64,000 nucleotides of DNA, taken from positions 13,383-77,382 of the forward strand of contig JBARYG010000002.1 in NCBI GenBank assembly GCA_049647745.1, written 5' to 3'. The translations under genes were made by a program, and so were the position numbers. This document shows, in pieces, positions 13,822 through 61,290 of this stretch. The stretch's first letter is position 1. Every line of letters begins with the position of its first letter. The notes under the pieces are model-generated. The model had not been told where the DNA came from. It worked only from the letters and a program-made list of their open reading frames with translations, and did not search any database. The stretch is from Mesorhizobium sp. (GTDB lineage Bacteria > Pseudomonadota > Alphaproteobacteria > Rhizobiales > Rhizobiaceae).

Positions 13822-13822
13822 G

Positions 13823-17479: not shown

Positions 17480-17482
17480 GTC

Positions 17483-19414
17483 CTAGGCGCCCTGCGGTTC
17501 CACGAGCATGCGGCCCTGCATCTCCATGTGCATGGCGTGGCAGAACCACGAACAGTAATACCAGTAGACACCTGGCTTGCTGGCAGTGAACGTCACTGAG
17601 GCAGTCGCCTGCGGCGCCACTTCCATGTTGATGCCGTAGTTGACGATGGCAAAGCCGTGGGTGAGATCCTCCACCTCGTCGATATTCGTGACATAGACGG
17701 TGACCTCATCGCCCTGTTTGACGTTGAAGCTCTCCAACCCAAAGGCCGGCGCGGAGGACGTCATGTAGACGCGGACCTTGTTTCCGTCGCGGATCACCTC
17801 ACTGTCCATCATCAGGTCGATGCCATCGGCTTTGGCCTGTTTGACAGCATCCTCAAAGAAGGGATCCGCCCTATCCCAGATGCTGATCGGGTTGATCTTC
17901 GAGCGATGGACAAGTGTGGCGTCATGAGGCTCGGCGAAGCTTGGACCGTCATGTACGAGCACCATCTGATCGCCTGAAATATCGATCAACTGGTCGTTCT
18001 CCGGCTTCAGCGGACCAACGTTGAGATAGCGATCCTTGGAGAACTTGTTCAGCGAAATCAGCCATTTGCCATCCGCTTCCTTGGTCTGCCCCATGGACGT
18101 ATGGTTGTGGCCGGGCTGGTAGTGGACATCAAGCTTCTGACGGATCGGATCGACCTTCTCACCGGCGAAGGAACGCTTGGCATCCTCGATGTTCCACTTG
18201 CAGATCTGGCTGTCGATGAAGAGTGTGGTGTAGGCGTTGCCACGGCCGTCATATGCGGTATGCAATGGCCCAAGTCCCAATTCCGGCTCGGCGACCACCG
18301 TGTCGCGCGGCTTGATCTTGTCATCGAATAGATCGTCGAACTTACGCACGTCGAACACGGTCACCGTCGGCGACAACTTGCCGTTTGCCACCACATGGAT
18401 GCCGTCCGGCGCAGTGTTGATGCCGTGCGGGCTGTTGGCCACGGGCACGTAGCGGGTGTAGGGCGAGCCGTGGCGCCCGTCGACGACCGGCACGCCGCCC
18501 ATCTCCTTGAAGTCGCCCTTCTTGACGGCTTCTTCGATGCGCTTGAGGTTGAAGATGACGATCCAGTCCTGCTCCTTCGCCATCATCTGCTCGAGGTTCA
18601 CGCCTTCCTCGGAGTTGTAGCAGGTAGAGAAGGCATATTTGCCCTGATAGTCGGCATCGACATTGTCGAGATTGCCGTCGACCATAACCTGCCAGGCCAC
18701 CTTCATCGTCTCGCCGTCCACGGCGGTGAAGATCGAATGGTACTGCTTGGGATCGTCCAGTATCTTGCCGTCGTTCGGAATCGGCACGCGGTCCTCGCCG
18801 TTACAGAACACATAGCCCGTCTTCGGGTACTTCTGCACACGCAGGCCATGTACAGTGTGCTGGTTAGGCAACTGGATGATCTTGTCGCATTTCATGACGT
18901 CGAGACGGATGCGCGCGACACGGGTATTCGCCTTATCGTTGACGTAAAGGTAGCGACCGTCATAGGTGCCATCCGTCTGCGAGGGGTGCGGATGGTGCAA
19001 GTCGCCGTTGAGATAAATACCACCGCGATCCTTCAGGAACTCCTTCGTTTCGGGAAGCAGCCCTTCCGTCAGGATCTTACGGCTCTCGTTGGTTTCACCC
19101 CAACCGGTCGCACTGCAGCGGTTAAAGACCGGGATGCGCATCATCTCACGCATCGAGGGCGCGCCGACGATACGAACCTCGCCGGTCTGGCCGCTGGAGA
19201 AGAACACGTAGTATTCGTCCAGCTCTCCGGGCTTGACCTCGGCTTCCTGCTCGCCCTTCTCGTCCGCCGCGGCCGGCGATACCACGCCTCCGTTTAGTGC
19301 CAGTCCGCCACCGACCCCTGCGGCACCGGCGGCCGCCATTACAGCGGTGGTGCCCAGCAGTTGGCGTCTACTCAGAATGGCTTTCCGTTCCCGTTCGTCC
19401 TGTGACATGGTCAT
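17483..19414 (-). CDS. nosZ: Nitrous-oxide reductase NosZ (Tat-dependent, clade I)
   Basis: 643 aa. Tat signal [19 protein letters not shown] and C-terminal CuA motif [12 protein letters not shown]. Confidence 0.97.
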
Positions 19415-19432
19415 TCTCCTTGTTGTGGCCTG

Positions 19433-21766
19433 TCAGCCGGTTACACTGGTATCTTTTGCAGCTGTCCCTACTGGCTCACCCCCGTGGGTGATCACCGGCG
19501 GCTTGGGCGGACCCTTGCCGCGGGTTGCCGGCGAGGACAGCGCCTCGAATTTCTCGCGCTTCAGCCGCACCTGGATCATGTGCGGGCAGCGGTGGTCGTC
19601 GTGGTAGAGTTCCTGGCAGTGCATGCAGTAGATGCACTCGTTGACGTTGATCTCGCCTTCGGGGTGGATCGCCTGCACCGGGCATTCCTTGGCGCAGCGC
19701 TGGCAGGGCGAGCCGCATTCGGGATAGCGCTTCAGCCACTCGAACATGCGGATGCGTCCGGGAATGGCGAGCGCGGCGCCTAGCGGGCACAGGTACCGGC
19801 AATAGAAGCGCTCGATGAAGAGACCGGCTCCGAGCAGTGCCAGCGCGAAGACGACAAAGGGCCAACCACGCGCGAACTTCAGGATGATCGCCGTCTTGAA
19901 CGGCTCGACCTCTGCATAGGTCTCGGCCAGCGCAACGGAATAGAGCGACAAGCCGAACAGGCCTAGGAAGATCATGTATTTGACCGGCCACAGCCGCTCA
20001 TGTAGGCCGAAGGGCAGCTTGATCTGCGGCACCTTCAGCCATTGGGCGAGGTTGTTGGTGAGTTCCTGTAAGGCGCCAAACGGGCACAGCCAACCACAGA
20101 AGGGACCCCTGCCCCAGAACAGCAGCCCCGCCGCCACCGCCGCCCACAGGATGAAAATTAGCGGCGCCGCAAGGAAGAACTCCCAGTTGAAGCCGGTGAC
20201 CAGAGAATTGACGAAGGTCAGAACATTGACCACGGAAAGCTGGGCGTTGGCATACCAGCCGAGCCACACCAGCGTGAACAGCAGGTATCCCCGCCGCACC
20301 CAGGCGAACAGACGGGGCCGGCTTACCAGCCAGTTCTGGAAGAAGAAGATGGCGGTTAGCACCAGGAGAGCAGCGACCGTGACGCCGATCTTGAAGGTGT
20401 TCATCTTCCAGATCCTCACCCAGAGGGGTTCCTGGTCGGGAGAACCCTGCTCCGACAGCCCACTCGTTACGGGCTGGGCCGGCTCTTGCGCAGGCGTGAC
20501 TGTGGGCAGCGCTGGTTGCGTCACCGTCATTGGAGCAGCCTTCAGATAGCGCGCGGGCAAGGTATAACCGAGGTCGAAGGGCAAGGTCGCCTTGTCGCGT
20601 GCGCCGTAGCTGCGCTGTACGAGCAACTGCAATTCCCATGGCTCGGAAAGGTCGAGCGAAAACTCCTCCGGCACTGTGAACAACGCGATCTCGCGCAGAT
20701 GTGGCGCGCCTTCTGCAGCAAGATCGCCGAGACGCGTGTGATTGCGGTCGCGAAAGCGGACGCCCTGACCGTCCTGCATCAGTTCGATACGATCGAAGAT
20801 ACCGCCACGCACATAGCCCGACCCCTTGAAGGAATAAGCACCCTCGCCGGCCACGACGATCGCCTGCTGGCCAGGCTTCAGTTTCTTCTCCAATCTGTCG
20901 TAACCGGTATCACCCAGCAGGCTCCTGCCGATGGCGGGCACGCTGACGGGCGCGACGTAAAGATCGATGAAGCGGTCGGCCGGATTGCCGGTCTCGGGCC
21001 GCTCGGCCGCCTGCGTCTGGCCTGCGTCGGCGAAGGCTTTCGTCACCTCGCCCACGGTCAGGCGCAAGCTGCGCACGGAGCCATCGCCGACCAGCGTGCT
21101 CCAGTCGCTTATCCCCGATACAGCGGGGTCCACGATCATGGCCGGCGCGGCGGAGGCTCCAGGAGCGCCAGCCTCCCTCTGACCCAAGCGCCCGCTTCGG
21201 ATCAGCTTCACCGCCGAGCGCACCACGCTGTCACTCATCACCAGCACGGTCACGGTGGCACCGCTGACGATATCCACCTGAGGTATCTGTTCCCGCCCCG
21301 CAGCAACCTGGCCAAGGTCCTTGCCGATCAGCGAGTTCAGGGCGGCAACGACCTTTTCCTGCGGGATACCGATGAGGACGATCGGCTCCTTGTGCTCGAC
21401 CAGCTTGATGCCGCGGACGACGCCGCCGGCGTTGATACCGACGAGAATACGGATCGGTTTTCCAGAATAGCCGACCGCGCTCGTGAAATCGGTATTGAGA
21501 TACGCGTAGCCGACCGCCTTTCCGCCGGACAGGAGAGGCACCAATGGCGGATTCCCTTCTGCCTTGCCGTAGGCATCGGCACCCTGGATCAGTTCGCCGG
21601 GCGCGGTACTGGACAGAAAGTGCTGCAAGCTTTCGTCGGCCCGTCCCGGACTCACCAGCAGGGCCAGCAACGTCAGCATGGCCACCACCACAACCATCGT
21701 ACGAGAGACGAGGGCCGTGACGAGCCGTGCGGTTCTGGGCCTGATCGTAGCCATAGGTCCTGACAT
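19433..21766 (-). CDS. nosR: NosR membrane flavoprotein / Fe-S regulator of N2O reductase
   Basis: Start chosen at ATG 21766 (MSGPMATIRP..). Periplasmic FMN-binding-type domain, 6 TM, and C-terminal Cys clusters CRYLCPLG, CGSPCQRCAKECP and CIYCMHCQ. Confidence 0.93.
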   Translation of the reverse strand: MSGPMATIRPRTARLVTALVSRTMVVVVAMLTLLALLVSPGRADESLQHFLSSTAPGELIQGADAYGKAEGNPPLVPLLSGGKAVGYAYLNTDFTSAVGYSGKPIRILVGINAGGVVRGIKLVEHKEPIVLIGIPQEKVVAALNSLIGKDLGQVAAGREQIPQVDIVSGATVTVLVMSDSVVRSAVKLIRSGRLGQREAGAPGASAAPAMIVDPAVSGISDWSTLVGDGSVRSLRLTVGEVTKAFADAGQTQAAERPETGNPADRFIDLYVAPVSVPAIGRSLLGDTGYDRLEKKLKPGQQAIVVAGEGAYSFKGSGYVRGGIFDRIELMQDGQGVRFRDRNHTRLGDLAAEGAPHLREIALFTVPEEFSLDLSEPWELQLLVQRSYGARDKATLPFDLGYTLPARYLKAAPMTVTQPALPTVTPAQEPAQPVTSGLSEQGSPDQEPLWVRIWKMNTFKIGVTVAALLVLTAIFFFQNWLVSRPRLFAWVRRGYLLFTLVWLGWYANAQLSVVNVLTFVNSLVTGFNWEFFLAAPLIFILWAAVAAGLLFWGRGPFCGWLCPFGALQELTNNLAQWLKVPQIKLPFGLHERLWPVKYMIFLGLFGLSLYSVALAETYAEVEPFKTAIILKFARGWPFVVFALALLGAGLFIERFYCRYLCPLGAALAIPGRIRMFEWLKRYPECGSPCQRCAKECPVQAIHPEGEINVNECIYCMHCQELYHDDHRCPHMIQVRLKREKFEALSSPATRGKGPPKPPVITHGGEPVGTAAKDTSVTG

Positions 21767-21841
21767 GTGTCCCCTTCTTTCGGCTGCTTGGGCCAAGCCG
21801 ACTTCGGAGCGCACATCTCTACGGTTTCGCGGAACGATTCT

Positions 21842-21855
21842 TTGATTCAAAGCAA
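21842..21855. promoter_or_regulatory. FNR/FixK-type box, one mismatch (TTGATTCAAAGCAA)
   Basis: Lies in the divergent nosR / ferritin-like intergenic region, 76 nt from nosR ATG 21766 and 53 nt from ATG 21908. Confidence 0.55.
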
Positions 21856-21907
21856 AGCGACGACAGATTGCGCGCCTATGCTGCCTCACAAACCAGAGGG
21901 CCATCCG

Positions 21908-23591: not shown

Positions 23592-25163
23592 TTACCTGAA
23601 ATAGATATTGAATCTCGCACGTAACGCAGCATCGATTTCCGGCTCGATGACCGAGCCCGCCCGTGAAAGAATTTCATTTTTGCGGGCGATGGCCTTGTCG
23701 AGCAGCATGGGCTTGCCGGCCTCGACCCACTCCTTGGGACTCATGCGATTGCCGACGACAGGGTAGACATATTCCGTTTGCATCAACTGGAGGGTCTGGT
23801 TCGAGCCAAGATAGTGGCCGGCTCCTCCCAGACATACTTCCTTCATTACCTCGATGCTGGTCGTATCGTCCGTAACGTCGATGCCGCGAACGAGGCGCAT
23901 CACCTGACCGAGAATATCGTCACCAAGAACCATGCTCTCAAGACAAAAGCCGAGCAGCGAGGCGTGCATCCCGACCGACTCATAGCAGAGGTTGAGGCCG
24001 GACAGGCCTGCAAGCGTGTTCGTGATGCCCTGCTCCCAACCCGCCTGCATGTCGGGAAGCTTCGAGTCCGATATTCCCGACGCCGCTCCGCCCGGCAAGT
24101 CGTAAAAGCGATGCATCTGCGCACATCCTGCCGAAAGCAGCGCCTGTTCGGCACTGCCACCCGACATGGCGCCCGTGCGCAGATCCGACACAAACGGCCA
24201 GGTGCCGAAGATCGCGGGCGCACCGGGCCGAATGGCGTTCACATAGACCACGCCCGCAAGACATTCCGCCATCGCCTGCACAATGGCCAGCGCGATCGGC
24301 GCGGGCGCAGTAGCTCCGGCCTGCCCTGCCGAAAGCAGGAGCATCGGCATTCCGCCACGGACGCATTCTTCCAAGACGCGGCAGCTTTCCTCGGCAAACT
24401 TCATCGGCGGGACGACAAAGCAATTGGAGTTGCTGACGAAAGGCCGCTCCCGCCACTTGTCCTCGCCGCCGGCCACCATATGCAGCATTTCGAAAGCGTC
24501 GGCGACATGGTCAAGGTCGAAGATACTCGTCCCGACATGCTTGCGCGTGCCCGAAAGGCAGGCGTAGAGCGTGTTGAGGTCCATCTCCTTGTTATCCGCC
24601 ACGTCGCGGCAGACCACCGTGCGCTGGAAGAAGTGGACGTTGTCGAGATGCTCCGCCAGCCGTGCGGAATCGTATAGATCCTGCGCAGTGGATTCGCGGT
24701 AGCTCGACGTCAGGGGGTCGACGATGTGCACCGCCGCTCCCGCCGTGCAGAAATGCACGCTCGTCCCGGAGAGATGCATATCGTGTTTGGGATCGCGGGC
24801 GTGCAGGGTGATGTCGCGCCCGGCTTTCGCCAGCATGTCCTCGACAAGAGCGCGGGGAAAGCGGATGCGACCGTCATCCCCCAGTATCGCGCCGGCCCCG
24901 CACAAAAGCTCCACGCCCGAAGCCGGCGCATTGGCAAGCCCGATTTCCTCCAGCGCCTGTAACGCCGAAGCATGAATCTTTTCCACGCCCGCCTGGGTCA
25001 GAGGCTTGTACTGGCCACCGGGAAGACCCGCCCGTACCGGCCGCAGATTATCCGCCAACGGCGCGGCGCGAGCCGCCACCCGTGCCGCGCGGCCCCCGGA
25101 GCGGGCCGAGCGCCGAGCCATCTCGGGAGCGCATAGTTCATCGACAGCGTTCATGTTTGTCAC
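23592..25163 (-). CDS. MttB-superfamily (non-pyrrolysine) methyltransferase, quaternary-amine type
   Basis: 523 aa with full-length resemblance to trimethylamine methyltransferase family proteins. No in-frame TAG. Confidence 0.85.
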   Translation of the reverse strand: MTNMNAVDELCAPEMARRSARSGGRAARVAARAAPLADNLRPVRAGLPGGQYKPLTQAGVEKIHASALQALEEIGLANAPASGVELLCGAGAILGDDGRIRFPRALVEDMLAKAGRDITLHARDPKHDMHLSGTSVHFCTAGAAVHIVDPLTSSYRESTAQDLYDSARLAEHLDNVHFFQRTVVCRDVADNKEMDLNTLYACLSGTRKHVGTSIFDLDHVADAFEMLHMVAGGEDKWRERPFVSNSNCFVVPPMKFAEESCRVLEECVRGGMPMLLLSAGQAGATAPAPIALAIVQAMAECLAGVVYVNAIRPGAPAIFGTWPFVSDLRTGAMSGGSAEQALLSAGCAQMHRFYDLPGGAASGISDSKLPDMQAGWEQGITNTLAGLSGLNLCYESVGMHASLLGFCLESMVLGDDILGQVMRLVRGIDVTDDTTSIEVMKEVCLGGAGHYLGSNQTLQLMQTEYVYPVVGNRMSPKEWVEAGKPMLLDKAIARKNEILSRAGSVIEPEIDAALRARFNIYFR

Positions 25164-47860: not shown

Positions 47861-47874
47861 TTGACCCCGGTCAA
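47861..47874. promoter_or_regulatory. Perfect FixK/FNR box TTGACCCCGGTCAA
   Basis: 72 nt upstream of ATG 47946. Confidence 0.65.
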
Positions 47875-47945
47875 TGCCAATTTTCGCGCGGGGTGCCATT
47901 CTCGCAGCCATTGGTAGCAAAACTGTCTTGTCACAAGGCTTACTG

Positions 47946-49252
47946 ATGCCATCGATCCGAGTTCTTGCCGTTCTGATCTGTGCCGCCGCAACGTCGATCA
48001 GCCCGATGCCGGCCGCAAGCGAGAACTCCCTCGCCCCGATGCTCACCCGTGTTATCCCAGCGGTTGTCAGCATCTCAGCCGAAGGTGCCATATCCGCAGG
48101 CCAGTCCATTCCGCCTGGCGCTCCGGTCCTGCCTACGGTAGGTTCCGGTTCAATCATCGATGCGGCGAGAGGTCTCGTCCTCACTGACTACCACGTCATC
48201 CAAGGAGTTGGCGCGATCTCGGTCACGCTTTCGGACGGACGCAGCTTCGAGGCAGGGATCGTCGGGACGGATGCCGATTCCGATATCGCCGTTATCAAGA
48301 TCGATGCCAGAGGTCTTTCGGAATTGCCCATGGGAGATTCGGACAAACTCAAAGTGGGCGACTATGTAGTAGCGGTCGGGAATCCGTTTGGCCTTTCCCA
48401 GACCGCTACGCACGGCATCGTCAGCGCGCTTGGAAGAACTGGCTTCGAGACGGAGCCTATGAAGGCTACATCCAGACGGACGCCGCCATCAACCCAGGTA
48501 ATTCCGGAGGCCCCCTGGTCGACCTCGACGGACGTATGGTTGGCGTAAACAGCGCTATCATCGACGCGTCGGGCGGCAGCATAGGGATCGGATTTGCTAT
48601 TCCATCGAACGCTGTAAAGCACATCCTTCCTGAACTGATCGCACATGGAGAGGTCTGACGCGGACAGCTCGGTGTCGTCGTACAGGATCTGACTGCAGAT
48701 CTTGCGGCGGCGCTCCGTGCCAACATGTCGAAGGGCGCCGTCGTCAGCCAGGTGCTTCCCGGTTCCGGTGCGGATGCGGCAGGCCTTGCGCCTGGCGACG
48801 TAATTCTCGCCATCAATGGTCAAGACGTGGCTGATGCCGGTGAACTGCGCCGCTCGATCGGCAACCTCGCGCCGCAGGCGAAAGTCCATGTCACCGCGCT
48901 TCGGGACGGGCGAAAGATCGATCGTGATGCGGAGGTATCGCTGAAAATAAGCGGACCGGCCACCTACCATGGTAGAGGACTTCTCGAATCCGTCTTGCTG
49001 GCCAAAGTGACGTCCGGGTCGCCCGCCTACGGCAAGGTCCAAGGCGCCGCTGTGGTATCCGTCGAACCGGATAGTGCCGCGGCAAGCAGCGGGCTCGTGG
49101 AAGGTGACGTTATCGCGACAATTGACCGGAAGCCGATAGGCGGTCCTGAGCGGGCTGCACGCATCGCGGCCGACCATGCGGACCTGCTTCTCCTCGGAAT
49201 CTACCGAGATGACCAGATGCACTTCGTCGTGGTTCGTCGCGGGAACAGTTGA
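47946..49252 (+). pseudogene. DegP/HtrA-family serine protease with one frameshift (about 48450) and one in-frame TGA (48656-48658)
   Basis: Signal peptide, then ..[30 protein letters not shown]. After the frame change it reads [36 protein letters not shown], followed by two PDZ-like regions to TGA 49250-49252. Confidence 0.8.
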
Positions 49253-51822: not shown

Positions 51823-52212
51823 TCAGAGCCGCTCGATGACGCCCTTCAGCATATCGCGGACCTTGTCGGCGGGACCGCGCAGTGCCGTATTTTCAATCGC
51901 CGACATTGATGCCACGGGGTCGATCGCGGCCACTTCGACGCTTTCTTCACCCAAGTCCTGCACGATGACGTTGCATGGCAGCATGGTGCCCACTTTGTCC
52001 TCGATCTCAAGCGCCTCTCGCGCCATGGCCGGATTGCACGCTCCGAGAATCCGATAGCTCCTGAAGTCGATCCCAAGCTTCTTCTTGAACGTCTCCTTGA
52101 CATCTATCTCGGTGATGATGCCGAAACCGGCGTCCTTCAATGCTGCTGTCGTGTGTTCGACCGCCTCGTCGAAAGAGCAATGCAGCGTTCTGGAAAAGTA
52201 GTAACTCATCAT
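51823..52212 (-). CDS. DUF302 protein
   Basis: MMSYYFSRTL..FDEAVEHTTAALKDAGFGIITEIDVKETFKKKLG..YRILGACNP..A.....KVGTMLPCNVIV. Lies 13 nt downstream of the RND gene. Confidence 0.8.
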   Translation of the reverse strand: MMSYYFSRTLHCSFDEAVEHTTAALKDAGFGIITEIDVKETFKKKLGIDFRSYRILGACNPAMAREALEIEDKVGTMLPCNVIVQDLGEESVEVAAIDPVASMSAIENTALRGPADKVRDMLKGVIERL

Positions 52213-52225
52213 CGTTTCCTTTCTA

Positions 52226-55200
52226 TCAGGTGGAAGTCGTGGTCGGCTCGTTGGTTCCCGTGATTTCAATATTTGAATTTTGCGCGGTCCCATGATCGGT
52301 TCCGCCGCGGAGCGCCACATAGATAGCCGGGATGACGAGCACGGTGAGCAGAGTGGATGAGGCCAGCCCGAACAGGAGAGAAATGGCGAGCCCCTGGAAG
52401 ATCGGATCGGTCAGGATGACAGCCGCGCCGATCATGGCGGCGAGCGCCGTGAGCAGGATCGGCTTGAAGCGGACCGCACCCGCCTCCAGCAGAACATCCC
52501 TGAGCGGCAGCCCGCTCCCTTGCGTATGGCGTATGAAGTCGATAAGCAGGATCGAGTTGCGCACGATGATGCCGGCCAGCGCGATGAAGCCGATCATCGA
52601 TGTCGCCGTAAATGGCGCATGGAACAGCCAGTGGCCGAGCATGATGCCGATAAAGGTCAGTGGAATGGGCGTCAATACCACGAGCGGCAGCTTGAACGAG
52701 CCGAACTGTGCAACGACCAGTATATAGATGCCGAGCAAGGCTACCGCGAAAGCCGCCCCCATGTCACGGAACGTTACCCAGGTGACTTCCCATTCACCGT
52801 CCCAGAGCAAGGTCGGATGTGTCTCGTCAGCCGGTTGCCCGTGTAGACGGATTACCGGCTTTTTGAGGCCGGTCCAACCCATTTTGTCGAGGGCCTTCTC
52901 GACTGCGACCATACCGTAAAGTGGCGCCTCGTATTGACCGGCCAGTTCGCCGATCACCATCTCGGCATCGCGGGCGTTATGGCGGAAGATCGGGTAGGAC
53001 GTCTTCTCTTTGGTCATACGGACGACGTCGCCCAACTCGACAACACCGCGGGCACCTGGTAGCGTATTCGCCGGGACCGGTACGCTCAGATAACGCTCAT
53101 CGACCACTTTATCGCCCTTCGGCCGCTCGATGCGGATAGGGATCGGCTCGCGCCCTTCGCCGCGGTGAGAATAGCCAACGGTCTCCCCGCCTCCCAGGAT
53201 ACGCATTGTCTGGAACACGTCGCTTTCCTGCACGTGGAAGAATTCCAGATCGTCGGTAGAGATAACGGCTCTCAGCCGCGGAGCCTGGGTACCATAGCTG
53301 TCATCGACATCAACGATGAACGGTACAGACTTGAAGGCTTGGCGAACCTTCTCGGCTACCGCACGGCGGGTATTTGCATCCGGTCCGTAGATCTCAGCGA
53401 GCAGCGTCGAAAGTACCGGCGGGCCGGGCGGCGGCTCGACGACTTTCAGCCGAGTGCCGGCCGGGGCCTTTAGCACATCGATCTTCCTGCGAATTTCCTG
53501 CGCGATAGCGTGGCTTTCGCGGTCGCGCTCAGCCTTCGGCTTCAGATTGATAGAGATGTCGCCCTGCCACGATTGAGAACGCAGATAGTAGTGCCGCACC
53601 AGTCCGTTGAAGTCGAACGGCGCGGCGGTTCCCGCATGTGTTCCGACCGACACGACCTCCGGGATCGTCATCACTGTGCGTGCGATCTCCTGAGCTACGG
53701 CGTCAGTCGCCTCAGTCGACTGGCCGTTCGGCAGGTCTATCATGACGGACAGCTCCGACTTATTGTCGAACGGCAGAAGCTTCACTGTCACGTTCTCGGT
53801 GTAGAAAAGCGTCAGCGAACCAAGCGTCAGGGCGCCCACGATGATAAGGAAGACCCAGCTTCGGGTCCGGTTGACGAGAATGGGCCGGGCTGCTGCCTTG
53901 TAGATGCGTCCGAACAGCGTGTCGGGGTTCGCTTCGTCATGATCGGCGAATTGCGCCCGCCCAGCGATCCTCAGCATCAGCCAGGGCGTCACTATGACCG
54001 CCACGAAGAATGAGAAAATCATGGCCGCCGACGCGTTTGCCGGGATCGGGCTCATATAGGGGCCCATCATTCCTGATACGAAAAGCATCGGCAGCAGGGC
54101 GGCAACAACCGTCAGCGTGGCGATGATGGTCGGATTGCCGACCTCCGCTACCGCCTCGATCGCCGCCTCGACGCGGCCGCGGCCGTCGCGCATGACCCAG
54201 TGCCGGGTAATGTTCTCGATCACGACGATTGCGTCGTCGACGAGAATACCGATAGAAAAGATCAGGGCAAACAGGGAGACGCGATTGAGCGTGTACCCCA
54301 TGATCCTGGCAGCGAACAGCGTCAGAAGTATGGTCACCGGGATGACGATTGCGACGACCACTGCCTCGCGCCAGCCAATGGCTAACCAAATGAGGACAAC
54401 AATGGAGATTGTCGCAAGCCCCAGGTGAAAGAGCAGTTCGTTCGACTTTTCGTCGGCAGTCGCTCCATAGTTGCGCGTGACAGCGACATTGACGAAATCA
54501 GGGATGATAGTGCTCTTGAGCTCCTGAACACGCTGCAGAACCTGGTCCGCGACGACGACGGCGTTGGAACCTGCCCGCTTGGCGATTGCCAGCGTAACCG
54601 CCGGGGAGCGAACGACGTTATTGTCTTCACGCTTCAAGATTGAGACAAGCTCGCTCGTCGGCGTGGTGACCAGCGAGACATCAGCGACGTCGCGGACATA
54701 GACCGGCCGGTCATCACGTGTCGTCAGCATCAGCTTGCCGATTTCGTCGGGCGCGGAAAGCGTACGGCCAGCCACGACGCCGATTTCCAATCCCTTGTCG
54801 CGTACTGTTCCAGCCGGAAATGCCATATTGGCGCCGCCGGCCTTGGCGGCAAGCTGTTGAAGCGTCACGCCGTAGAGCGCCAGCTTCTCCAGGTCGGGCG
54901 CAACGCGAATACGCTCGTCGGCTGCGCCGACAAGATAGGTAAGGCCGACATTGTCGATTTTCGCCACCTGGACCCGAAGCGCACGGGCAATCTGGGTCAG
55001 TTGGTTCGACGTCACGGAGCCCGCAAATTTTGGATCGGGCGACAGCGTCAGATCAACGACTGTGACGTCATTGATGCCGCGTCCAACGATCAACGGTTCG
55101 GGGATGCCGACGGGAATCTTGTCGAGATTGGCCCTGATTTTCTCATGCGCGCGCAGAATGGCAGTATCCGCAGAAGTCCCGACCTCGAAACGCGCCGTGA

Positions 55201-55501
55201 CCAGCACGTTGTCGTCGTTTGTCTGCGAGTAGACATGCTCCACGCCATTGATGCCGCGTACTATTCCTTCCAGAGGTTCGGTGATCAGCTTGACGGCATC
55301 TGGCGCCTTCAACCCGTCGGCCCGCACATGGATGTCGACCATCGGCACTGAAATCTGCGGATCCTCCTCTCGTGGCAGCGTGAAAAGCGCGACAAGACCC
55401 ACCGCAAAGGCCGCGATCAGAAAAAGAGGCGTCAACGGCGACCGGATGAAGATGCGGGTCAGATTGCCGGCGATGCCGAGTCCTCCAGACGGCAGTATCA
55501 T
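52226..55501 (-). CDS. RND-superfamily efflux permease (AcrB/AcrD/AcrF-like)
   Basis: 1091 aa with 12-TM architecture and two large periplasmic loops. ATGA overlap with the MFP gene. Confidence 0.9.
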   Translation of the reverse strand: MILPSGGLGIAGNLTRIFIRSPLTPLFLIAAFAVGLVALFTLPREEDPQISVPMVDIHVRADGLKAPDAVKLITEPLEGIVRGINGVEHVYSQTNDDNVLVTARFEVGTSADTAILRAHEKIRANLDKIPVGIPEPLIVGRGINDVTVVDLTLSPDPKFAGSVTSNQLTQIARALRVQVAKIDNVGLTYLVGAADERIRVAPDLEKLALYGVTLQQLAAKAGGANMAFPAGTVRDKGLEIGVVAGRTLSAPDEIGKLMLTTRDDRPVYVRDVADVSLVTTPTSELVSILKREDNNVVRSPAVTLAIAKRAGSNAVVVADQVLQRVQELKSTIIPDFVNVAVTRNYGATADEKSNELLFHLGLATISIVVLIWLAIGWREAVVVAIVIPVTILLTLFAARIMGYTLNRVSLFALIFSIGILVDDAIVVIENITRHWVMRDGRGRVEAAIEAVAEVGNPTIIATLTVVAALLPMLFVSGMMGPYMSPIPANASAAMIFSFFVAVIVTPWLMLRIAGRAQFADHDEANPDTLFGRIYKAAARPILVNRTRSWVFLIIVGALTLGSLTLFYTENVTVKLLPFDNKSELSVMIDLPNGQSTEATDAVAQEIARTVMTIPEVVSVGTHAGTAAPFDFNGLVRHYYLRSQSWQGDISINLKPKAERDRESHAIAQEIRRKIDVLKAPAGTRLKVVEPPPGPPVLSTLLAEIYGPDANTRRAVAEKVRQAFKSVPFIVDVDDSYGTQAPRLRAVISTDDLEFFHVQESDVFQTMRILGGGETVGYSHRGEGREPIPIRIERPKGDKVVDERYLSVPVPANTLPGARGVVELGDVVRMTKEKTSYPIFRHNARDAEMVIGELAGQYEAPLYGMVAVEKALDKMGWTGLKKPVIRLHGQPADETHPTLLWDGEWEVTWVTFRDMGAAFAVALLGIYILVVAQFGSFKLPLVVLTPIPLTFIGIMLGHWLFHAPFTATSMIGFIALAGIIVRNSILLIDFIRHTQGSGLPLRDVLLEAGAVRFKPILLTALAAMIGAAVILTDPIFQGLAISLLFGLASSTLLTVLVIPAIYVALRGGTDHGTAQNSNIEITGTNEPTTTST

Positions 55502-56469
55502 GGCACGATCACGCTTTCACCGGCGACGAGGCCGGTCAGGATTTCCACTGACGGCACGCCGTCAATTGTCACGTGCTCCCCCGGAACGACGACGCGGCTT
55601 ATTTTCTGACCGCCCGCCGCCACCAGGACGAAGTCGAGGCCGGAGCGATGGGCTACCGCCGCCTCGGGCACAATAAGGGCCGACCGCTCGCCAACAGGAA
55701 TATGAACCAAGACACGACGATCGACGTAGCGCGTCTGTAGATCGGGAACCTCGACGTCGGCCGATACGCGGCCGTTTTCGATCAACGGATAGATCTTCGC
55801 CAGCGTCCCAAGGACGGAACCTTTCTCGGTTATGATCTCGAGCTTTGCACCCTCTTCGAGGGCTGCGGCATGGCGCTCGGGCATGGCGAGACGAAGGAAA
55901 AAGCCACCACCCCCGATCGTGGCGAGCGGCTCTCCTGCCATGATAACAGCGTCCCTGGTCACAGGAACCGTCAGCACCAGCCCGCTTATCGGGGCAAGCA
56001 CCTTACCTTCCTTTTGCTGCTGCTCGATCACCGAACGTTGCGCTTCGGTGGCGGCAATCTGGTTCTGGAACACCGCGACCTGTGTACGCATCTGGTCGAG
56101 TTGTTGACTTGTGGTGACGCCGCGAGCGATCAGTTGCTCGGCTCGGCCGAGATTGGTCTGGGCGTTCTGTAGTTGCGAGTGCATCGCCTTTAGCTGCGCA
56201 TCAACTGCCTGGATCTGGAAGTCCAGTTTTTCGTCATGAACGAGTGCGATGACCTGTCCGGATTTGACGGTATCGCCCTCGGTGACGTCGAGTTCGATGA
56301 CAGTGCCACCGATCCGAGCCCGCGCCGGAACCGTCGTGCGCGATTCAACTTGCGCGTAGACGGCCTTCCACTCCGTCAGTGTTGTCGGTTCCAGCTTCAC
56401 GGTCGCCTCTGCAAGAGCGGCTTGGCTCGCAAGCGCCAAGGCGCCGAGTGTCAGGATCACACGTATCAT
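55498..56469 (-). CDS. RND periplasmic adaptor (membrane-fusion protein, HlyD family)
   Basis: Signal peptide MIRVILTLGALALASQAALA, lipoyl-like GDTVKSGQVIA, a coiled-coil segment and a beta-barrel C-terminus. Confidence 0.88.
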   Translation of the reverse strand: MIRVILTLGALALASQAALAEATVKLEPTTLTEWKAVYAQVESRTTVPARARIGGTVIELDVTEGDTVKSGQVIALVHDEKLDFQIQAVDAQLKAMHSQLQNAQTNLGRAEQLIARGVTTSQQLDQMRTQVAVFQNQIAATEAQRSVIEQQQKEGKVLAPISGLVLTVPVTRDAVIMAGEPLATIGGGGFFLRLAMPERHAAALEEGAKLEIITEKGSVLGTLAKIYPLIENGRVSADVEVPDLQTRYVDRRVLVHIPVGERSALIVPEAAVAHRSGLDFVLVAAGGQKISRVVVPGEHVTIDGVPSVEILTGLVAGESVIVP

Positions 56470-56603
56470 TGGAATACCGTCCCCGGCTTGATACCCGGCT
56501 TGCGCGAACCGACGACTGTCGACCTGCCGCCTGGGAAAGCGGGCTGGAGCACGTCCAGCCCAAGGAAGGCGCCGAAAGCGGGAATGTTGTGGTCAAGCGA
56601 CAT
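56466..56603 (-). CDS. Possible 45-aa leader ORF coupled to the adaptor gene
   Basis: AGGGAG lies 7 nt upstream of ATG 56603, and its stop overlaps the MFP ATG (ATGA). MSLDHNIPAFGAFLGLDVLQPAFPGG.. No family recognised. Confidence 0.3.
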   Translation of the reverse strand: MSLDHNIPAFGAFLGLDVLQPAFPGGRSTVVGSRKPGIKPGTVFQ

Positions 56604-56887
56604 AGTCGAACTCCCTGCTTTGGATGACGTCGCAAATCGCTTTTCCGCACTAGATTGCGGGCCTAGGGTGGCGTCGAATCTCGATTGGGTTTGACTGCAG
56701 TTCCCGAGACGTTTCGAATGTCGGGCTGCAACATTACATTCAGACATCACAAACCTACAAATGTCCTGACTTGTATTGGCCATTGCCGGCACCTCGGTCC
56801 GACGCACGCCCCGCGGCAACAAGCGAGGGTATCGGTACCGCGGCATCGCGCGAGTTTCTCGCCAACTGGGAGGAACCGGAGGCATAA

Positions 56888-56907
56888 TCATGCCTCCGCC
56901 AACGGTC
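56888..56907 (-). other. Stem-loop GGAGGCAT-aatc-ATGCCTCC just downstream of the DUF2892 gene
   Basis: 8-bp perfect stem without a clear U-tract. Sits at the head of a 320-nt untranslated spacer before the RND module. Confidence 0.35.
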
Positions 56908-56925
56908 TGAGCGCATAGGCATGGG

Positions 56926-57129
56926 TTATTTGAAGGTGACGCCACTCTTGCAACCAACCTTCTTGAAGAAGATGGCAGCCGGGCAGAATCTCGTCACCGA
57001 GGCCTGGATCAGGTTAACCCCGACGAAGGCCGTGAGCAGATACCACCAGGGCGAAACATAGAAGCCCAGCCCCAGCGATATGAGCACCATGCAGCCTGCG
57101 AACATCATGACCGCGCGATCGATTGTCAT
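56926..57129 (-). CDS. DUF2892 (YgaP-like transmembrane domain) protein
   Basis: 67 aa. AAGGAG upstream, two TM helices, and LIQASVTRFCPA is the characteristic motif. Confidence 0.8.
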   Translation of the reverse strand: MTIDRAVMMFAGCMVLISLGLGFYVSPWWYLLTAFVGVNLIQASVTRFCPAAIFFKKVGCKSGVTFK

Positions 57130-57156
57130 TAGCTTCTCCTTTTGATTAAGCGACGC

Positions 57157-58449
57157 TCAGTCTGCGTTCTCCAGATGGATTCCCTTGAGTTTCTTGATGC
57201 CGAGCACATCAAGCGCCAAGCCCTCATAGAAAGTCTCGCTCTTGCCCTGCCGCACCTTGTGCAGGAAGTACTTTTCGAAGCCGATCTTGGCCGCATGCAC
57301 CCATTTTCCCTGTGAGGACCAATTGATATTGCGCGGCGGAATCTGCGGTTGCGCCACGAAGGCTATGCCTTCATCGCCGAAATCCGCGAGGCAGACAGCA
57401 TTCCAGGTAGCGACAGCCCTTGGCTCCTCGCCACGCAGGAGCGCCGCGATATTCTCAACGGTCGCCGTCACCATGGATTCGATCATGAAGCCGGTTTTCG
57501 GCACCCCGACCGCAAGCGGTGTCTTGCCGACCGGCGGTATGGCAACGCACACACCGACAGAGAAGACGTTGGGGTAGATCTGATTACGCTGATACTTGTC
57601 GATGGTTACGAAGCCCCGCGGGTTTACCAGACCTTCTACGCCTGCCACGGCCGGGACGCCTCGGAAGGCAGGGAGCATCATCGAGAAGGCGAAGGGAAGA
57701 TCATGGCCTGCCCTGCGCGAACCGTCTTCATTGACCTCCTCGACATGCATGGCGCCTGCTTCGACCGAGATCACCTTTGCGTTGGTGATCCATTTGATAT
57801 GCCGGTCGCGCATAGCACTTTCGAGCAGGCCCTTGGTGTCGCCCACTCCATCGAGGCCGAGATGGCCGATATAGGGCTCGGGCGTGACGAAGGTGATCGG
57901 TACCCTGTCGCGCACCTTGGCTCTGCGCAGCGCTGTATCGAGGATGAAGGCGAACTCATAGGCGGGTCCATAGCAGGAAGCGCCCTGCACCGCGCCGACG
58001 ACGACAGGACCGGGCGCCTTCAAAAGTTCGTCAAACTTCAGCTTTGTCGCGACTGCATGATCAGTCTGGCAGATCGACTGCGTGTGGCCCGAAGGCCCGA
58101 GGCCCGGCACTTCGTCAAATGCAAGGTCGGGACCGGTGGCGATGACGAGATAGTCGTATTCGACAAAGGATCCGTCGTTCAATTCGACACGGTTCTCCTT
58201 CGGGAGCACTTTTCTTGCTCCTTCCGGTCGAAGCGCGATGTCCCGCCGGGCGAAAGTCCGGGCCAGATCCACACTGATCTCGTCTCGATCGCGCCAGCCT
58301 ACCGCCACCCATGGGTTCGATGGCACGAAGGAATAGGTCGAACCCAGATTGATGACCGTCAGCTGATCTTCGCGTGCGAGCTTCGCTCGCATTTCGTAGG
58401 CCATGAGTGTACCGCCCAGACCGGCCCCCAGAACGACGATATGCGACAT
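57157..58449 (-). CDS. sqr: Sulfide:quinone oxidoreductase
   Basis: Start at ATG 58449: MSHIVVLGAGLGGT (FAD fold). Conserved Cys contexts QGASCYGPAYEF and SVGVCVAIPP. 430 aa. Confidence 0.88.
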   Translation of the reverse strand: MSHIVVLGAGLGGTLMAYEMRAKLAREDQLTVINLGSTYSFVPSNPWVAVGWRDRDEISVDLARTFARRDIALRPEGARKVLPKENRVELNDGSFVEYDYLVIATGPDLAFDEVPGLGPSGHTQSICQTDHAVATKLKFDELLKAPGPVVVGAVQGASCYGPAYEFAFILDTALRRAKVRDRVPITFVTPEPYIGHLGLDGVGDTKGLLESAMRDRHIKWITNAKVISVEAGAMHVEEVNEDGSRRAGHDLPFAFSMMLPAFRGVPAVAGVEGLVNPRGFVTIDKYQRNQIYPNVFSVGVCVAIPPVGKTPLAVGVPKTGFMIESMVTATVENIAALLRGEEPRAVATWNAVCLADFGDEGIAFVAQPQIPPRNINWSSQGKWVHAAKIGFEKYFLHKVRQGKSETFYEGLALDVLGIKKLKGIHLENAD

Positions 58450-58598
58450 GGCTATACCTTTGCTTGCTTCAGTTTCGCGAGATTGTGCATGAGTCCCGCC
58501 GATCTGCATTGACCGACCTCAATTTTCGGCCGAAGCATCGAGACTGTGGATGGTCGTCGTCCATCAGCCGTCTTGCATCTAACATTCAAGGATTATAA

Positions 58599-58614
58599 AT
58601 TCAATAGCATGAAT
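58599..58614. promoter_or_regulatory. ATTC-N8-GAAT dyad (candidate BigR/SqrR operator) overlapping the regulator start codon
   Basis: ATTCaatagcatGAAT. It is nested in the larger repeat CATTCA(58583)...TGAATG(58615). Confidence 0.45.
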
Positions 58615-58923
58615 GTAAAAGAAATGATCCCTGCGTCGGCACGAGCAGCCGACCTGATGCGGAGCCTCTCCCATCCGCAACGGCTCCTTGTGCTTTGTGC
58701 CCTGGTCGATGGCGAAAAATCGGTGGCCGAATTGCGCGAGTTGCTCGGCATCGAACAAGTGCCGATGTCACAACAACTCATGCGCCTGAGGGCGGATGGC
58801 TTGGTTGAGGCGCGGCGGAAAGGAACGACCGTTTTCTACCGCATCACGCGGCCAGAAGTGCTGACCGTCGTTGGCGCCGTGCACGCGGCATTCTGTCCGC
58901 CCGTCAGCAGCAAGCGGCCGTAG
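58609..58923 (+). CDS. ArsR-family persulfide-sensing repressor of the BigR/SqrR type
   Basis: LSHPQRLLVLCALVDGEKSVAELRELLGIEQVPMSQQLMRLRADGLV is the wHTH. One Cys precedes the HTH (LVLCAL) and one lies near the C-terminus (AAFCPP), the arrangement recalled for BigR/SqrR. Confidence 0.75.
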   Translation: MNVKEMIPASARAADLMRSLSHPQRLLVLCALVDGEKSVAELRELLGIEQVPMSQQLMRLRADGLVEARRKGTTVFYRITRPEVLTVVGAVHAAFCPPVSSKRP

Positions 58924-58929
58924 AAGGAC

Positions 58930-59500
58930 ACGAAATGGCACCTGTGACGAGCGTGCTCAACGCTAGACGCGATGACGGCTCTGGCATGCACCAAAGAAGT
59001 CGGGCGCAGACGGTCGCAAACCTCGGGCAGTTCGTGTTCTGGAATGCCCGGACCAAAGTTCTCGATTGCAACGGCTACTATGCTCTCCCCACGCCTCAAA
59101 TAACAGCGGACGGGTCTGTCGGGCAGCGAATGCAGGATTGCATTTTCAAGTAGGTTGTGCTTGGCGACCTCGAACAATGAGAGACCGACGCCGAGCCTCA
59201 GCCGACCAAGTTCGATGGCGATCGGAACGGAGCTGCACCACCATGCTATCGGCCTATATCACTGGCTAGGTCTCACGGAACCGCGCGAACATCAACAGAA
59301 CCCCCTTGAGACTCGAGTTCGCGTCTTCCATACGCGTCAGATCACTGAGTTGCCGAACCAGACGAGCGATACGATCAACGCCCACAACGATTTGGCTGAG
59401 CGCGGTCTGCGCCGGGTCTTGAGACCGGCAATCGGCGAGCGCAGTCCATGCGCGGCGAAAGCGGTAAAATCGCGCTCGCGTCGACTATCGCCTAAAAGCT
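58930..59500 (-). pseudogene. Sensor histidine kinase remnant (HisKA + HATPase_c pieces; frameshifts, stops, N-terminus missing)
   Basis: RERDFTAFAAHGLRSPIAGLKT, QIVVGVDRIARLVRQLSDLTRMED and NLLENAILHSLPDRPV..VAIENFGPGIPEHELPEV lie in different frames. Confidence 0.5.
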
Positions 59501-59573
59501 TACGGACAACGCATGGACCTGACATAGTGTGCAACACCAAGGATTGGACACAGTAGCCAGAAGGAGTGGGAAG

Positions 59574-60206
59574 TTGGGCACGGAATGGGACAAGCGATAC
59601 GGTCAGGACGATTATCTGTTCGGAACGGAGCCAAACGTATTTCTTACATCCCAATCTTTTAGACTCGAGCGTGGAATGCGTGCTCTGGCGGTCGCCGATG
59701 GTGAAGGGCGAAACGGAGTGTGGCTGGCCGAGCAAGGTATCGACGTCGTTGCGGTAGATGCCTCATTCGTTGGCTTGGAAAAGTCGTGTGCGCTCGCGGC
59801 ACGTCGTGGCGTGAAGCTGACTACGGTGCAGGCCGACTTTGCCGAGTGGAAATGGGAAACCGGGCAGTACGATGCCGTAATCGCCATTTTCATACAGTTC
59901 GCAGAGCCGGCATTGCGCGAGCGGATGTTCGAAGGTTTCTACACCACGCTCAAACCCGGCGGATCGCTCATCATGCAGGGATACCGCGTCGAAAAATTAC
60001 GTTATGGAACCGGCGGCCCTCCAGACGCCGAGCGGCTTTATACCCGGGAGCTTCTTCTGCACTCGTTCGCCTCCTGGGAGGTGCTCCGCCTCCATGAACA
60101 TGACGAGGCAATCGAGGAAGGTATAGGACACTCAGGAACGTCAGCCCTCATAGACTTGGTGGCGCGCAAGCCGGCGGACATTATTTGTTCGCCCACTGCA
60201 AGCTGA
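59574..60206 (+). CDS. Class I SAM-dependent methyltransferase
   Basis: AGGAG-N7-TTG 59574. WDKRYGQDDYLFG..ALAVADGEGRNGVWLAEQG.DVVAVD is motif I. TehB/UbiE-like. Confidence 0.75.
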   Translation: MGTEWDKRYGQDDYLFGTEPNVFLTSQSFRLERGMRALAVADGEGRNGVWLAEQGIDVVAVDASFVGLEKSCALAARRGVKLTTVQADFAEWKWETGQYDAVIAIFIQFAEPALRERMFEGFYTTLKPGGSLIMQGYRVEKLRYGTGGPPDAERLYTRELLLHSFASWEVLRLHEHDEAIEEGIGHSGTSALIDLVARKPADIICSPTAS

Positions 60207-60621: not shown

Positions 60622-60888
60622 TCAGTTCAACCGTCTGCTCTGTTCCAGTTCCTGCGCCATGTTACATTGTTTGTCGTCCTTTCCGGCCGGTTCGTCTTCG
60701 CGGCCGCGCACGACACGCCGGCCTGTCGTCGGGCCTCGCGTTTGCGTCACCACGGTGACCCGGCCTTCCGATGGGCCGTCGCGCTGGTAATGGATCACCA
60801 CCCAGTCCGAGGTCTTGTCCAGTTCATGCGCCAGCCGGCTGTTCGAATAGAGCGCGGTGAAATGCCAGCCTTCGCGGGAAGCATGCAT
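60622..60888 (-). CDS. Hypothetical protein or gene fragment (C-terminal ..DWVVIHYQRDG..VTVVTQTRGPTTGRRVVRGRE)
   Basis: 88-aa ORF abutting the IS5-type remnant. Family not recognised and it may be N-terminally truncated. Confidence 0.3.
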   Translation of the reverse strand: MHASREGWHFTALYSNSRLAHELDKTSDWVVIHYQRDGPSEGRVTVVTQTRGPTTGRRVVRGREDEPAGKDDKQCNMAQELEQSRRLN

Positions 60889-60894
60889 GATGGG

Positions 60895-61048
60895 AATGCG
60901 CGCCCGAGCGCAGCACCCAAAGCACGCCGTTGACGAAGGTGAGATTATCGCTCCCCGAACGGCCCGGATCGCCGGGCCTGCCGGGTAGCAAATCCCCGAT
61001 CCGCCGCCATTGTTCAGGCGTCAGTTCGTACCGCTTGGGCTTCGACAT
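60895..61048 (-). mobile_element. IS5-family (IS427-like, DUF4096) transposase OrfA N-terminal remnant
   Basis: MSKPKRYELTPEQWRRIGDLLPGRPGDPGRSGSDNLTFVNGVLWVLRSGAH, then similarity stops. Confidence 0.6.
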
Positions 61049-61290
61049 CACAGGCCTCCAGATCAATGAACCTGGAAACCCATGAATCACACTCCTCGAC
61101 AGAACTGAATCCTGAATGTCGATTGAACCTAGTTCTCATAAGAACGTCGGCGCCAACCAACCATTGGAGCAACAAATCGGCCCCTGCCTGAATTGACGTC
61201 GATCAAGGCTCGCGTCGCCCGGGCATGCTCTCATTTCAAAGTCGCGATTTGAATATGCACGCGTCGAACGCGCAAATCATGGAGGTTGAA

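Follow-up and report, generated by a model that had tools for sequence, protein, structure and literature searches.

We analysed a gene cluster in a 64,000-nt stretch of contig JBARYG010000002.1 (positions 13,383 to 77,382; assembly GCA_049647745.1, Mesorhizobium sp.), hereafter the window, in which a gene for sulfide:quinone oxidoreductase (SQR) lies upstream of genes for a membrane-fusion protein (MFP) and a resistance-nodulation-division (RND) permease. On the reverse strand the order is sqr, a DUF2892 gene, a 322-nt spacer, a 45-codon open reading frame (ORF; orf45), the MFP gene, the RND gene and a DUF302 gene, and an ArsR-family gene with two possible starts is divergent from sqr (Table 1). 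An earlier note on this DNA had described these genes and their spacing, and re-reading the junctions from the sequence reproduced every coordinate. ATGA overlaps join orf45 to the MFP gene (56466-56469) and the MFP gene to the RND gene (55498-55501), the 13-nt gap between the RND and DUF302 genes contains an AAGGAA Shine-Dalgarno sequence for DUF302, and 27 nt separate sqr from the DUF2892 gene.

Table 1. Genes and sequence elements of the sqr-RND cluster, in window coordinates. Strand is given relative to the sequence as deposited; control elements and the function of the regulator are predictions.
Feature	Position	Strand	Remarks
DUF302 protein, 129 aa	51823..52212	-	PF03625, 81 bits
RND permease, 1091 aa	52226..55501	-	ACR_tran (PF00873), 463 bits, full length
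MFP, periplasmic adaptor, 323 aa	55498..56469	-	TIGR01730, 128 bits
orf45, 45-codon ORF	56466..56603	-	apparently the decayed C-terminal half of a second DUF2892 gene
322-nt spacer	56604..56925	-	no complete sqr box, no promoter call on the - strand
GC-rich hairpin after the DUF2892 gene	56878..56897	-	8-bp stem, no U-tract
DUF2892/YgaP-like protein with two transmembrane helices, 67 aa	56926..57129	-	PF11127, 45.6 bits
sqr, type I sulfide:quinone oxidoreductase, 430 aa	57157..58449	-	473 bits against 3SZ0
FNR/FixK-type box TTGACCGACCTCAA (TTGA-N6-TCAA)	58509..58522	.	centred 66 nt upstream of the sqr start codon
Sigma-70-like promoter TTTACA-16-TATAAT towards sqr	58592..58619	-	promoter scan, 11/12 matches
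SqrR operator ("sqr box", predicted) ATTCAATAGCATGAAT	58599..58614	.	sole perfect ATTC-N8-GAAT of the 64 kb
sqrR-like gene, two-Cys ArsR-family persulfide-sensing repressor (predicted)	58609..58923	+	ATG start; alternative GTG start 58546

The closest solved relative of the regulator is SqrR of Rhodobacter capsulatus (phmmer against PDB entries 6O8L and 6O8K, 81 bits, 41% identity), and its two cysteines align with Cys41 and Cys107 of that protein. The ArsR/SmtB winged-helix fold is recognised by NF033788 (HTH_metalloreg; 73.6 bits, cut-off 55) and by Pfam HTH_5 (30.5 bits), and the NCBIfam BigR model scores 84.8 bits, under its cut-off of 155. On these comparisons the protein is best classed as SqrR-like and not as a BigR equivalog; the "BigR/SqrR-type" designation and the two-cysteine layout of the earlier note are supported. 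The N-terminal sequence MNVKEMIP is kept in five related loci (L009, L013, L054, L085, and L086), and Cys30 is shared by all 48 of 48 regulators that adjoin the pump, while 79% have Cys96.

The sqr box between arsR and sqr corresponds to the published SqrR core operator; it overlaps the arsR start and is located inside the spacer of the promoter that faces sqr. A block of the form CTTGCAT-TAACATTCAA-TTAAATTCAA-N5-ATGAATGT is common to the window and the same five loci, and the FNR/FixK-type box closer to sqr has equivalents in L009, L085, and L086. The sqr gene seems to carry both an SqrR box and an FNR-type box.

SQR matches the enzymes of Acidithiobacillus ferrooxidans (3SZ0) and Aquifex (3HYV, 340 bits), and the alignment conserves the three catalytic cysteine motifs SIC, GASC, and AVC together with the N-terminal GxGxxG (GAGLGG); we class it as a type I enzyme. 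The DUF2892 protein, well above the PF11127 cut-off of 25.3 bits, also matches the transmembrane (TM) domain of Escherichia coli YgaP (2MPN). Its Cys49, part of a (T/R)GFCP motif that follows TM2, is invariant in 54 of 54 homologues adjoining the pump; analogy with YgaP and the positive-inside rule predict a cytoplasmic position for it. The small orf45 has no Pfam match, GFCP is replaced by GGRS and TM1 is lost, and it is not an intact DUF2892 gene. By tblastn it matches, in several other loci, the 3' halves of DUF2892 genes that stand immediately before the MFP gene, and it shares 33% identity with residues 22-66 (the C-terminal 45 residues) of the L085 DUF2892 protein, with a KPGT(A/V)F end in both. 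By these two comparisons orf45, listed in the earlier note as a 45-codon ORF, is best read as the relic of a second DUF2892 gene and not as a new component. It retains a Shine-Dalgarno sequence and the ATGA overlap, and its survival may be owed only to translational coupling with the MFP gene.

The RND permease aligns with PF00873 across residues 16-1064 and falls below the cut-off of every NCBIfam subfamily (389 vs. 1250 bits for NF033617, RND_permease_2; 250 vs. 701 for TIGR00914, CusA/CzcA). Its nearest solved relatives are of the HAE-1 type, with 7wlv and 8yr0 (~232 bits) followed by TriC, MdtB, and MexK; a heavy-metal efflux (HME) pump was considered as an assignment and is disfavoured by both the model scores and these relatives. 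Residues D422/D423, K937, and R981 are invariant in 13 orthologues and are taken to be the proton relay, from motif equivalence to that of AcrB. The permease is 100% identical to a protein recorded from a Mesorhizobium sp. metagenome-assembled genome. Among the orthologues listed, identity across genera is 72-86%, and we assign the permease to a distinct, highly conserved alphaproteobacterial subfamily. Besides a Sec signal peptide, the MFP contains a coiled-coil hairpin; among solved structures TriAB and MexJ are nearest to it, and a CzcB-type model gives 70 bits. Adaptors of the TriAB/MexJ type serve tripartite pumps with an outer-membrane factor (OMF) encoded elsewhere. Because the MFP resembles them, export across the outer membrane appears more likely than the efflux to the periplasm suggested earlier. 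A single TolC query, together with Pfam checks on candidate ORFs, revealed no OMF gene in the window, in agreement with the earlier note, and for the same reason the lack of one is uninformative.

Rhodanese, TauE, a TrxC-type thioredoxin, a TolC-like OMF, and a metallo-beta-lactamase (MBL) of the persulfide dioxygenase (PDO) type were not found in the window by single-query tblastn and a motif scan, which have limited sensitivity; its sole MBL is a beta-CASP protein. By these searches, the cluster is not a classical SQR-PDO operon, in which PDO, usually with rhodanese or TauE, is encoded beside SQR.

The association of the pump with sulfur genes was surveyed by scanning the permease alignment over one genome per GTDB species, which found at least 600 matching stretches; the analysis retained the 80 best loci. 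Window proteins were located in these loci by tblastn, and 59 species-level loci with enough flanking DNA were counted. Greedy ORF-clustering of the neighbours was noisy (antisense ORFs, high-GC loci), and the targeted tblastn counts were used instead. DUF2892 is found within 4 kb of the pump in 42 of the 59 loci and type I SQR in 24, all of which also have DUF2892; a two-Cys SqrR-like ArsR gene lies by the pump in 32, and all three are present in 22. As SQR occurs within 4 kb of the orthologous pump in 24 independent species loci, the SQR-pump linkage is far beyond chance. These counts strongly support the idea of sulfur-linked efflux put forward in the earlier note, and with it a tie of the MFP-RND module, evolutionary here and elsewhere also regulatory, to SQR, DUF2892, and SqrR.

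The arrangement of these genes varies. In 12 loci arsR is co-directional with MFP-RND and directly upstream of it, and in many loci sqr-(trx)-DUF2892 and the arsR/MFP-RND side point in divergent directions. Fifteen loci have none of DUF2892, SQR, and ArsR, and eight of these, all Rhodobacterales, have a perfect sqr box no more than 250 nt upstream of the MFP gene. Altogether, 27 sqr boxes occur in 1.56 Mb of locus sequence, 10 of them just upstream of the MFP gene (≤250 nt, Rhodobacterales) and 3 at arsR starts. In the window itself, no such box stands directly upstream of the MFP gene.

A single-domain rhodanese is encoded within 5 kb of the pump in 16 of the 80 loci. In 14 of them (L033, L035, L036, L040, L042, L051, L052, L055, L058, L061, L066, L069, L074, and L075) the distance from it to the MFP gene downstream is about 200 nt at most (26-201 nt). 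The slot directly upstream of MFP-RND is held by rhodanese in 14 species and by DUF2892 in 10 others. The two proteins correspond to the two domains of YgaP in E. coli, which suggests that they are interchangeable sulfur-relay partners of the pump. Also within 5 kb are a TrxC-type thioredoxin (15 of 80), TauE (3), and a TolC-type OMF (1). Of the 80 loci, 4 encode a PDO-like MBL at most about 8 kb away from the pump, and in 2 the distance is 5 kb or less. The absence of PDO emphasised in the earlier note therefore agrees with its rarity beside the pump, whereas the absence of rhodanese is not a defining feature. Judged by the best 80 loci, the pump family, with at least 600 species, is almost always linked to DUF2892, rhodanese, SQR, or SqrR. 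Three betaproteobacterial loci (L078-L080, 43-45% identity) have no linked SQR on their short contigs. In a Mesorhizobium metagenome-assembled genome (MAG; L001), only short SQR-like fragments, with 72% identity (39 aa) and 45% identity (about 75 aa), are found at 8277-8623, immediately before DUF2892-MFP-RND; they apparently represent a decayed sqr, and the gene can, it seems, be lost while the pump module stays.

The survey bears differently on the last gene of the window cluster. The DUF302 protein matches TT1751 (1J3M, 87 bits) and has no signal peptide. A DUF302 gene is near the pump in 3 of about 83 related loci, at varying positions: L029 and L048 (2 of 80 within 5 kb) and L085. Co-occurrence of MFP/RND with sqr-DUF2892, for which the earlier note had proposed a survey, was thus found, but not that of DUF302, which the note had counted as part of the module. 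The synteny led us to reject DUF302 as an integral component of the pump; it is better described as a lineage-specific, occasional accessory that is peripheral to the system.

The two halves of the cluster have different closest relatives. For the pump these are L085 and L086, from Mesorhizobium-like MAGs (RND 85-86%, MFP 77-79% identical), with the order trx<-sqr<-arsR | DUF2892->MFP->RND and an intact DUF2892 gene that ends 2 nt before the MFP gene; in L085, the DUF302 gene lies 1 kb downstream of the RND gene. Both share the regulatory block with the window, but their pump operon begins with the intact DUF2892 gene and is divergent from arsR-sqr-trx. In the window, by comparison, the thioredoxin gene is missing, the original DUF2892 gene is decayed, and an sqr-DUF2892 unit of the L009 type is fused upstream. 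The closest relatives of the window sqr and of its intact DUF2892 are found in L009 (78% and 79% identity), where the order sqr-DUF2892-MFP-RND is the same, with a 113-nt gap, and the MFP and RND proteins are just 45% and 69% identical. The simplest reading is a fusion that placed an sqr-DUF2892 unit of the L009 type upstream of a DUF2892-MFP-RND unit of the L085 type, after which the redundant DUF2892 gene decayed to orf45. Such a mosaic ancestry, as read from these identities, shows the sqr unit and the pump unit to have been joined independently.

The pump also has a counterpart beside the best-studied regulator of this type. The 25-mer used as the published SqrR operator probe was described as taken from the "rcc1451 promoter." In an R. 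capsulatus-like contig (L081), whose SqrR is 97% identical to the crystallised protein, sqrR is convergent with an MFP-RND pair, and the exact 25-mer lies 37 nt upstream of the MFP gene, which the RND gene then follows. Because the window proteins are 68% (RND, over 1065 aa) and 55% (MFP) identical to this pair, we regard the window pump as an orthologue of the pump that adjoins sqrR and lies downstream of the SqrR operator. The window thus resembles the R. capsulatus system in its two-Cys ArsR repressor, ATTC-N8-GAAT operator, and orthologous MFP and RND proteins. It differs in that the box is directly upstream of the MFP gene in L081, whereas in the window it is upstream of sqr, with sqr-DUF2892 placed before the pump on the same strand, and in the added DUF2892 relic and DUF302 gene. 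No sqr or DUF2892 gene is present within the 9.8 kb of the L081 contig that was read. Just upstream of sqrR, an ORF for a single-TM peptide of 42-43 aa is conserved between L081 (1167-1295) and Rhodobacter aestuarii (L083, 7750-7881).

The linkage of such pumps to persulfide sensors has been noticed before. In a survey of two-Cys ArsR sulfane-sulfur sensors, RND transporters were among the commonest neighbours, including those of R. capsulatus SqrR and of sensors from Hyphomicrobium, Rhodomicrobium, Rhodopila, Rhodoplanes, Erythrobacter, and Halorhodospira, and the authors suggested that the pumps likely transport sulfur compounds (Li et al., 2025; PMC12423496). In Azospira suillum PS, H2S induces the operon Dsui_3440-3443, which encodes a hypothetical protein, an RND pump, SQR, and an MFP, more than 100-fold, from log2 values of ~1-4 to 8.6-10.6; the operon also gives a Bar-seq fitness signal, and a DUF2892 gene elsewhere in the genome is induced about 10-fold (Mehta-Kolte et al., 2017; PMC5358917). 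There SQR is co-operonic with an MFP and an RND pump, which resembles the window cluster; unlike the window, the operon is from a betaproteobacterium, SQR lies between the MFP and RND genes, and no regulator was described. The window cluster is an SqrR-linked RND pump of a kind already noticed, and the "undescribed variant" of sulfide detoxification that the earlier note saw in it is not supported in view of the orthologous pump next to sqrR and its published probe, the RND neighbours listed in PMC12423496, and the H2S-induced sqr-RND-MFP operon of PMC5358917. We found no report in the literature that characterises the pump family or its substrate.

Other known systems share parts of the arrangement. 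Classical operons (CstR cst, BigR blh, FisR pdo-sqr) likewise place SQR under a persulfide-sensing regulator, but the window differs from the SQR-PDO-rhodanese/TauE type in that none of PDO, rhodanese, and TauE was found and an RND pump occupies the neighbouring position. E. coli ygaVP pairs a two-Cys ArsR sensor (YgaV) with a DUF2892 TM domain, like the window, but has neither SQR nor an RND pump, and its YgaP fuses rhodanese to the TM domain. YgaP is a membrane rhodanese encoded with the SqrR-like regulator YgaV. The Synechocystis plasmid sqr operon and sox clusters resemble the window in having DUF302 beside sulfur-oxidation genes, together with ArsR-type regulators; the transporter of the Synechocystis operon is different, reportedly a chromate-transporter-like protein.

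We propose, with about even confidence, that this is a sulfide/persulfide-stress cluster under an SqrR-type repressor, in which the pump probably disposes of SQR-derived sulfane sulfur. The repressor would bind the single ATTC-N8-GAAT box, which overlaps the promoters of both divergent genes, arsR and sqr. On entry of sulfide into the cell, persulfides or polysulfides would bridge the two cysteines of the repressor, by analogy with SqrR, and release it from the DNA, allowing sqr-DUF2892 to be transcribed; read-through past the weak hairpin and the spacer would then bring in orf45-MFP-RND-DUF302. Type I SQR would oxidise H2S to zero-valent (sulfane) sulfur, and the pump, with an OMF encoded elsewhere, may remove S8, polysulfides, organic polysulfanes, or related reactive sulfur species, taking its substrate from the outer leaflet of the inner membrane or from the periplasm and sending it out of the cell. 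Sulfur export would in this scheme be a disposal route that replaces persulfide dioxygenase, and DUF2892, whose cysteine is invariant, would likely serve as a partner in the membrane or as a relay for sulfur.

SQR-derived sulfane sulfur is our best guess for the substrate from the gene neighbourhood. It is favoured by the sulfur-relay neighbours, with DUF2892 or rhodanese, the halves of YgaP, directly upstream of the MFP gene, and by the rarity of PDO. The hydrophobic nature of the type I SQR product counts in the same direction. A more specific form, which we hold tentatively and consider doubtful as it stands, is that (DUF2892 or rhodanese)-MFP-RND constitutes an export system devoted to zero-valent sulfur, be it S8, polysulfide, or organic polysulfane, that carries the type I SQR product across the outer membrane, with the DUF2892 cysteine or rhodanese as a relay or gate on the membrane side. 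To our knowledge, neither the fate of SQR-made sulfane sulfur in bacteria without persulfide dioxygenase nor the route of elemental sulfur across the Gram-negative envelope is settled. A dedicated exporter, if real, would explain sulfide detoxification and external sulfur deposits where sqr-pump loci are without a PDO gene.

Several points weigh against export of SQR-derived sulfur by a pump under SqrR control, which is put forward as a hypothesis. The predicted cytoplasm-facing cysteine of DUF2892 fits awkwardly with substrate capture in the periplasm, and the periplasmic orientation of type I SQR is assumed here from older work on R. capsulatus. In the family alignment the pump and MFP have no invariant cysteine, and a covalent sulfur relay through them would therefore be excluded. 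Deletion of the Azospira operon left the rate of perchlorate-dependent sulfide oxidation unchanged (PMC5358917), and the Azospira pump is likened to that of the window by gene content. Finally, the spacer contains neither box nor promoter and a stable hairpin follows the DUF2892 gene, which makes co-transcription of the pump genes with sqr a presumption here.

The last of these points concerns how the pump genes are transcribed. The spacer has no ATTC-N8-GAAT match even when one mismatch is allowed, and the promoter scan called nothing on its reverse strand; by eye, the only candidates for a second operator or promoter were a GAATGTAA half-site and a weak TTGTAG-16-TGTAAT, neither of them convincing. 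As the sole box is upstream of sqr, control of the pump by the repressor would therefore need read-through from there. The hairpin in its path (56897-56878) has a stable 8-bp stem with a fold z-score of -1.8, has no U-tract, and was not called by the terminator scan.

These features can be turned into an alternative, which we consider unlikely, that in this genome sqr-DUF2892 and the pump genes are separate transcription units joined by rearrangement. In this reading sqr-DUF2892 terminates at the hairpin, and the pump genes are either on an unrecognised promoter in the spacer or poorly expressed, and in neither case regulated by sulfide. The mosaic origins of the two halves, the decayed DUF2892 relic and 322-nt spacer between them, the stability of the hairpin, the lack of an sqr box in the spacer even with one mismatch, and the insertion sequence (IS) and gene fragments nearby all agree with separate units. 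On the other hand, the terminator scan passes over the hairpin, which is without a U-tract, the promoter scan gives nothing for the reverse strand of the spacer, and orf45 keeps its Shine-Dalgarno sequence and ATGA coupling to the MFP gene. L009 has the same gene order with a 113-nt gap, and the pump genes are intact, with the permease 85-86% identical to its closest relatives.

Another alternative leaves the regulation as proposed and changes the cargo. The pump would then be a general, multidrug-like exporter of hydrophobic compounds under SqrR, acting in an envelope-stress or antibiotic-tolerance response without specificity for sulfane sulfur; it might remove sulfide-damaged quinones, lipids, or organic thiol adducts. 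The closest solved relatives are indeed multidrug pumps, no invariant cysteine or methionine cluster stands out in the family alignment, and SqrR/YgaV-type regulators are reported to affect antibiotic tolerance. Set against this are the extreme conservation of the permease, at 72-86% identity across genera among the orthologues listed, and the tight association with DUF2892 or rhodanese in the position just ahead of the MFP gene, both of which argue for a specific, conserved substrate over a promiscuous one; we judge a general exporter improbable. Least probable by a clear step is export of metal-sulfide or thiometallate complexes or of sulfide-mobilised metals by a sulfide-stress-induced pump, the way in which H2S-induced RND pumps were read by Mehta-Kolte et al. 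(PMC5358917) and with which the CusA/CzcA score of the permease (250 bits) and the CzcB-type score of the MFP (70 bits) are compatible, but which accords poorly with a permease nearer to HAE-1-type drug pumps (RND_permease_2, 389 bits; best solved relatives 7wlv, 8yr0, TriC, and MexK), with the lack of a linked metal sensor, chaperone, or P-type ATPase in the 80 loci, and with constant partners that are sulfur-transfer proteins (DUF2892, rhodanese, thioredoxin, and SQR).

Export of sulfane sulfur by an SqrR-controlled pump would give a role to a large and conserved pump family that is wired to SqrR, SQR, DUF2892, rhodanese, and thioredoxin, and whose promoter is already the model SqrR operator. 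The comparative data turn "RND transporter next to sensor" into a concrete, testable hypothesis of sulfur export. Should the cargo of the pump have nothing to do with sulfur, the cluster would simply add to the number of stress-regulated efflux systems.

Features around the cluster include a histidine-kinase HATPase_c fragment (58836-59177, - strand) that adjoins its arsR end, and nearby the N-terminal fragment of an IS4/IS5 transposase (DUF4096; 60824-61090, - strand). These fragments fit a region that has been rearranged and was possibly acquired horizontally. Inspection of ORF translations by eye points to further IS-like ORFs that may be present at about 8.4-11.7 kb. A gene for a SAM-dependent methyltransferase (59529-60206, + strand) follows arsR at a distance of about 600 nt; its match to thiopurine S-methyltransferase (TPMT) is close to the threshold, at 25.1 bits against a cut-off of 26.

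The FNR/FixK-type box of sqr is one of many. Between 26319 and 61206, TTGA-N6-TCAA boxes occur 11 times across the window, compared to 0.72 expected and a maximum of 4 in 100 shuffles; the sites include 27723, 31253, 34033, 40921, 45752, 49414, 58509, and 61193, and several are seemingly in gaps between predicted genes of a greedy ORF list. Genes within this span encode Usp, host-attachment/baeRF12, phosphoketolase, a putative acetate kinase, and P-type ATPase proteins as well as SQR. From its boxes and gene content, the span looks like a low-oxygen (FixK/FnrN) regulon island.

Farther from the cluster, the window contains a nitrous-oxide reductase cluster (12829-21904, - strand) with Pfam-annotated nosZ (17483-19414) and apbE (12829-14220), beside which are ORFs that resemble nosR, nosD, and nosY in their sequence features alone. 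The Rfam family PYLIS_3, the pyrrolysine insertion sequence of mttB, matches at 23975-24073 (- strand) with 44.1 bits against a gathering score of 38. The match sits within an uninterrupted 523-aa MttB-family ORF (23592-25163, - strand; Pfam MTTB, 369 bits), and because this ORF has no in-frame stop it presumably encodes a non-pyrrolysine MttB homologue, with the PYLIS_3 match reflecting similarity of the coding sequence. A DegP/HtrA-like protease appears to be split between a Trypsin_2 ORF (47874-48548, + strand) and an ORF with two PDZ domains (48725-49252, + strand), which suggests a frameshift, a pseudogene, or an assembly error in the MAG.

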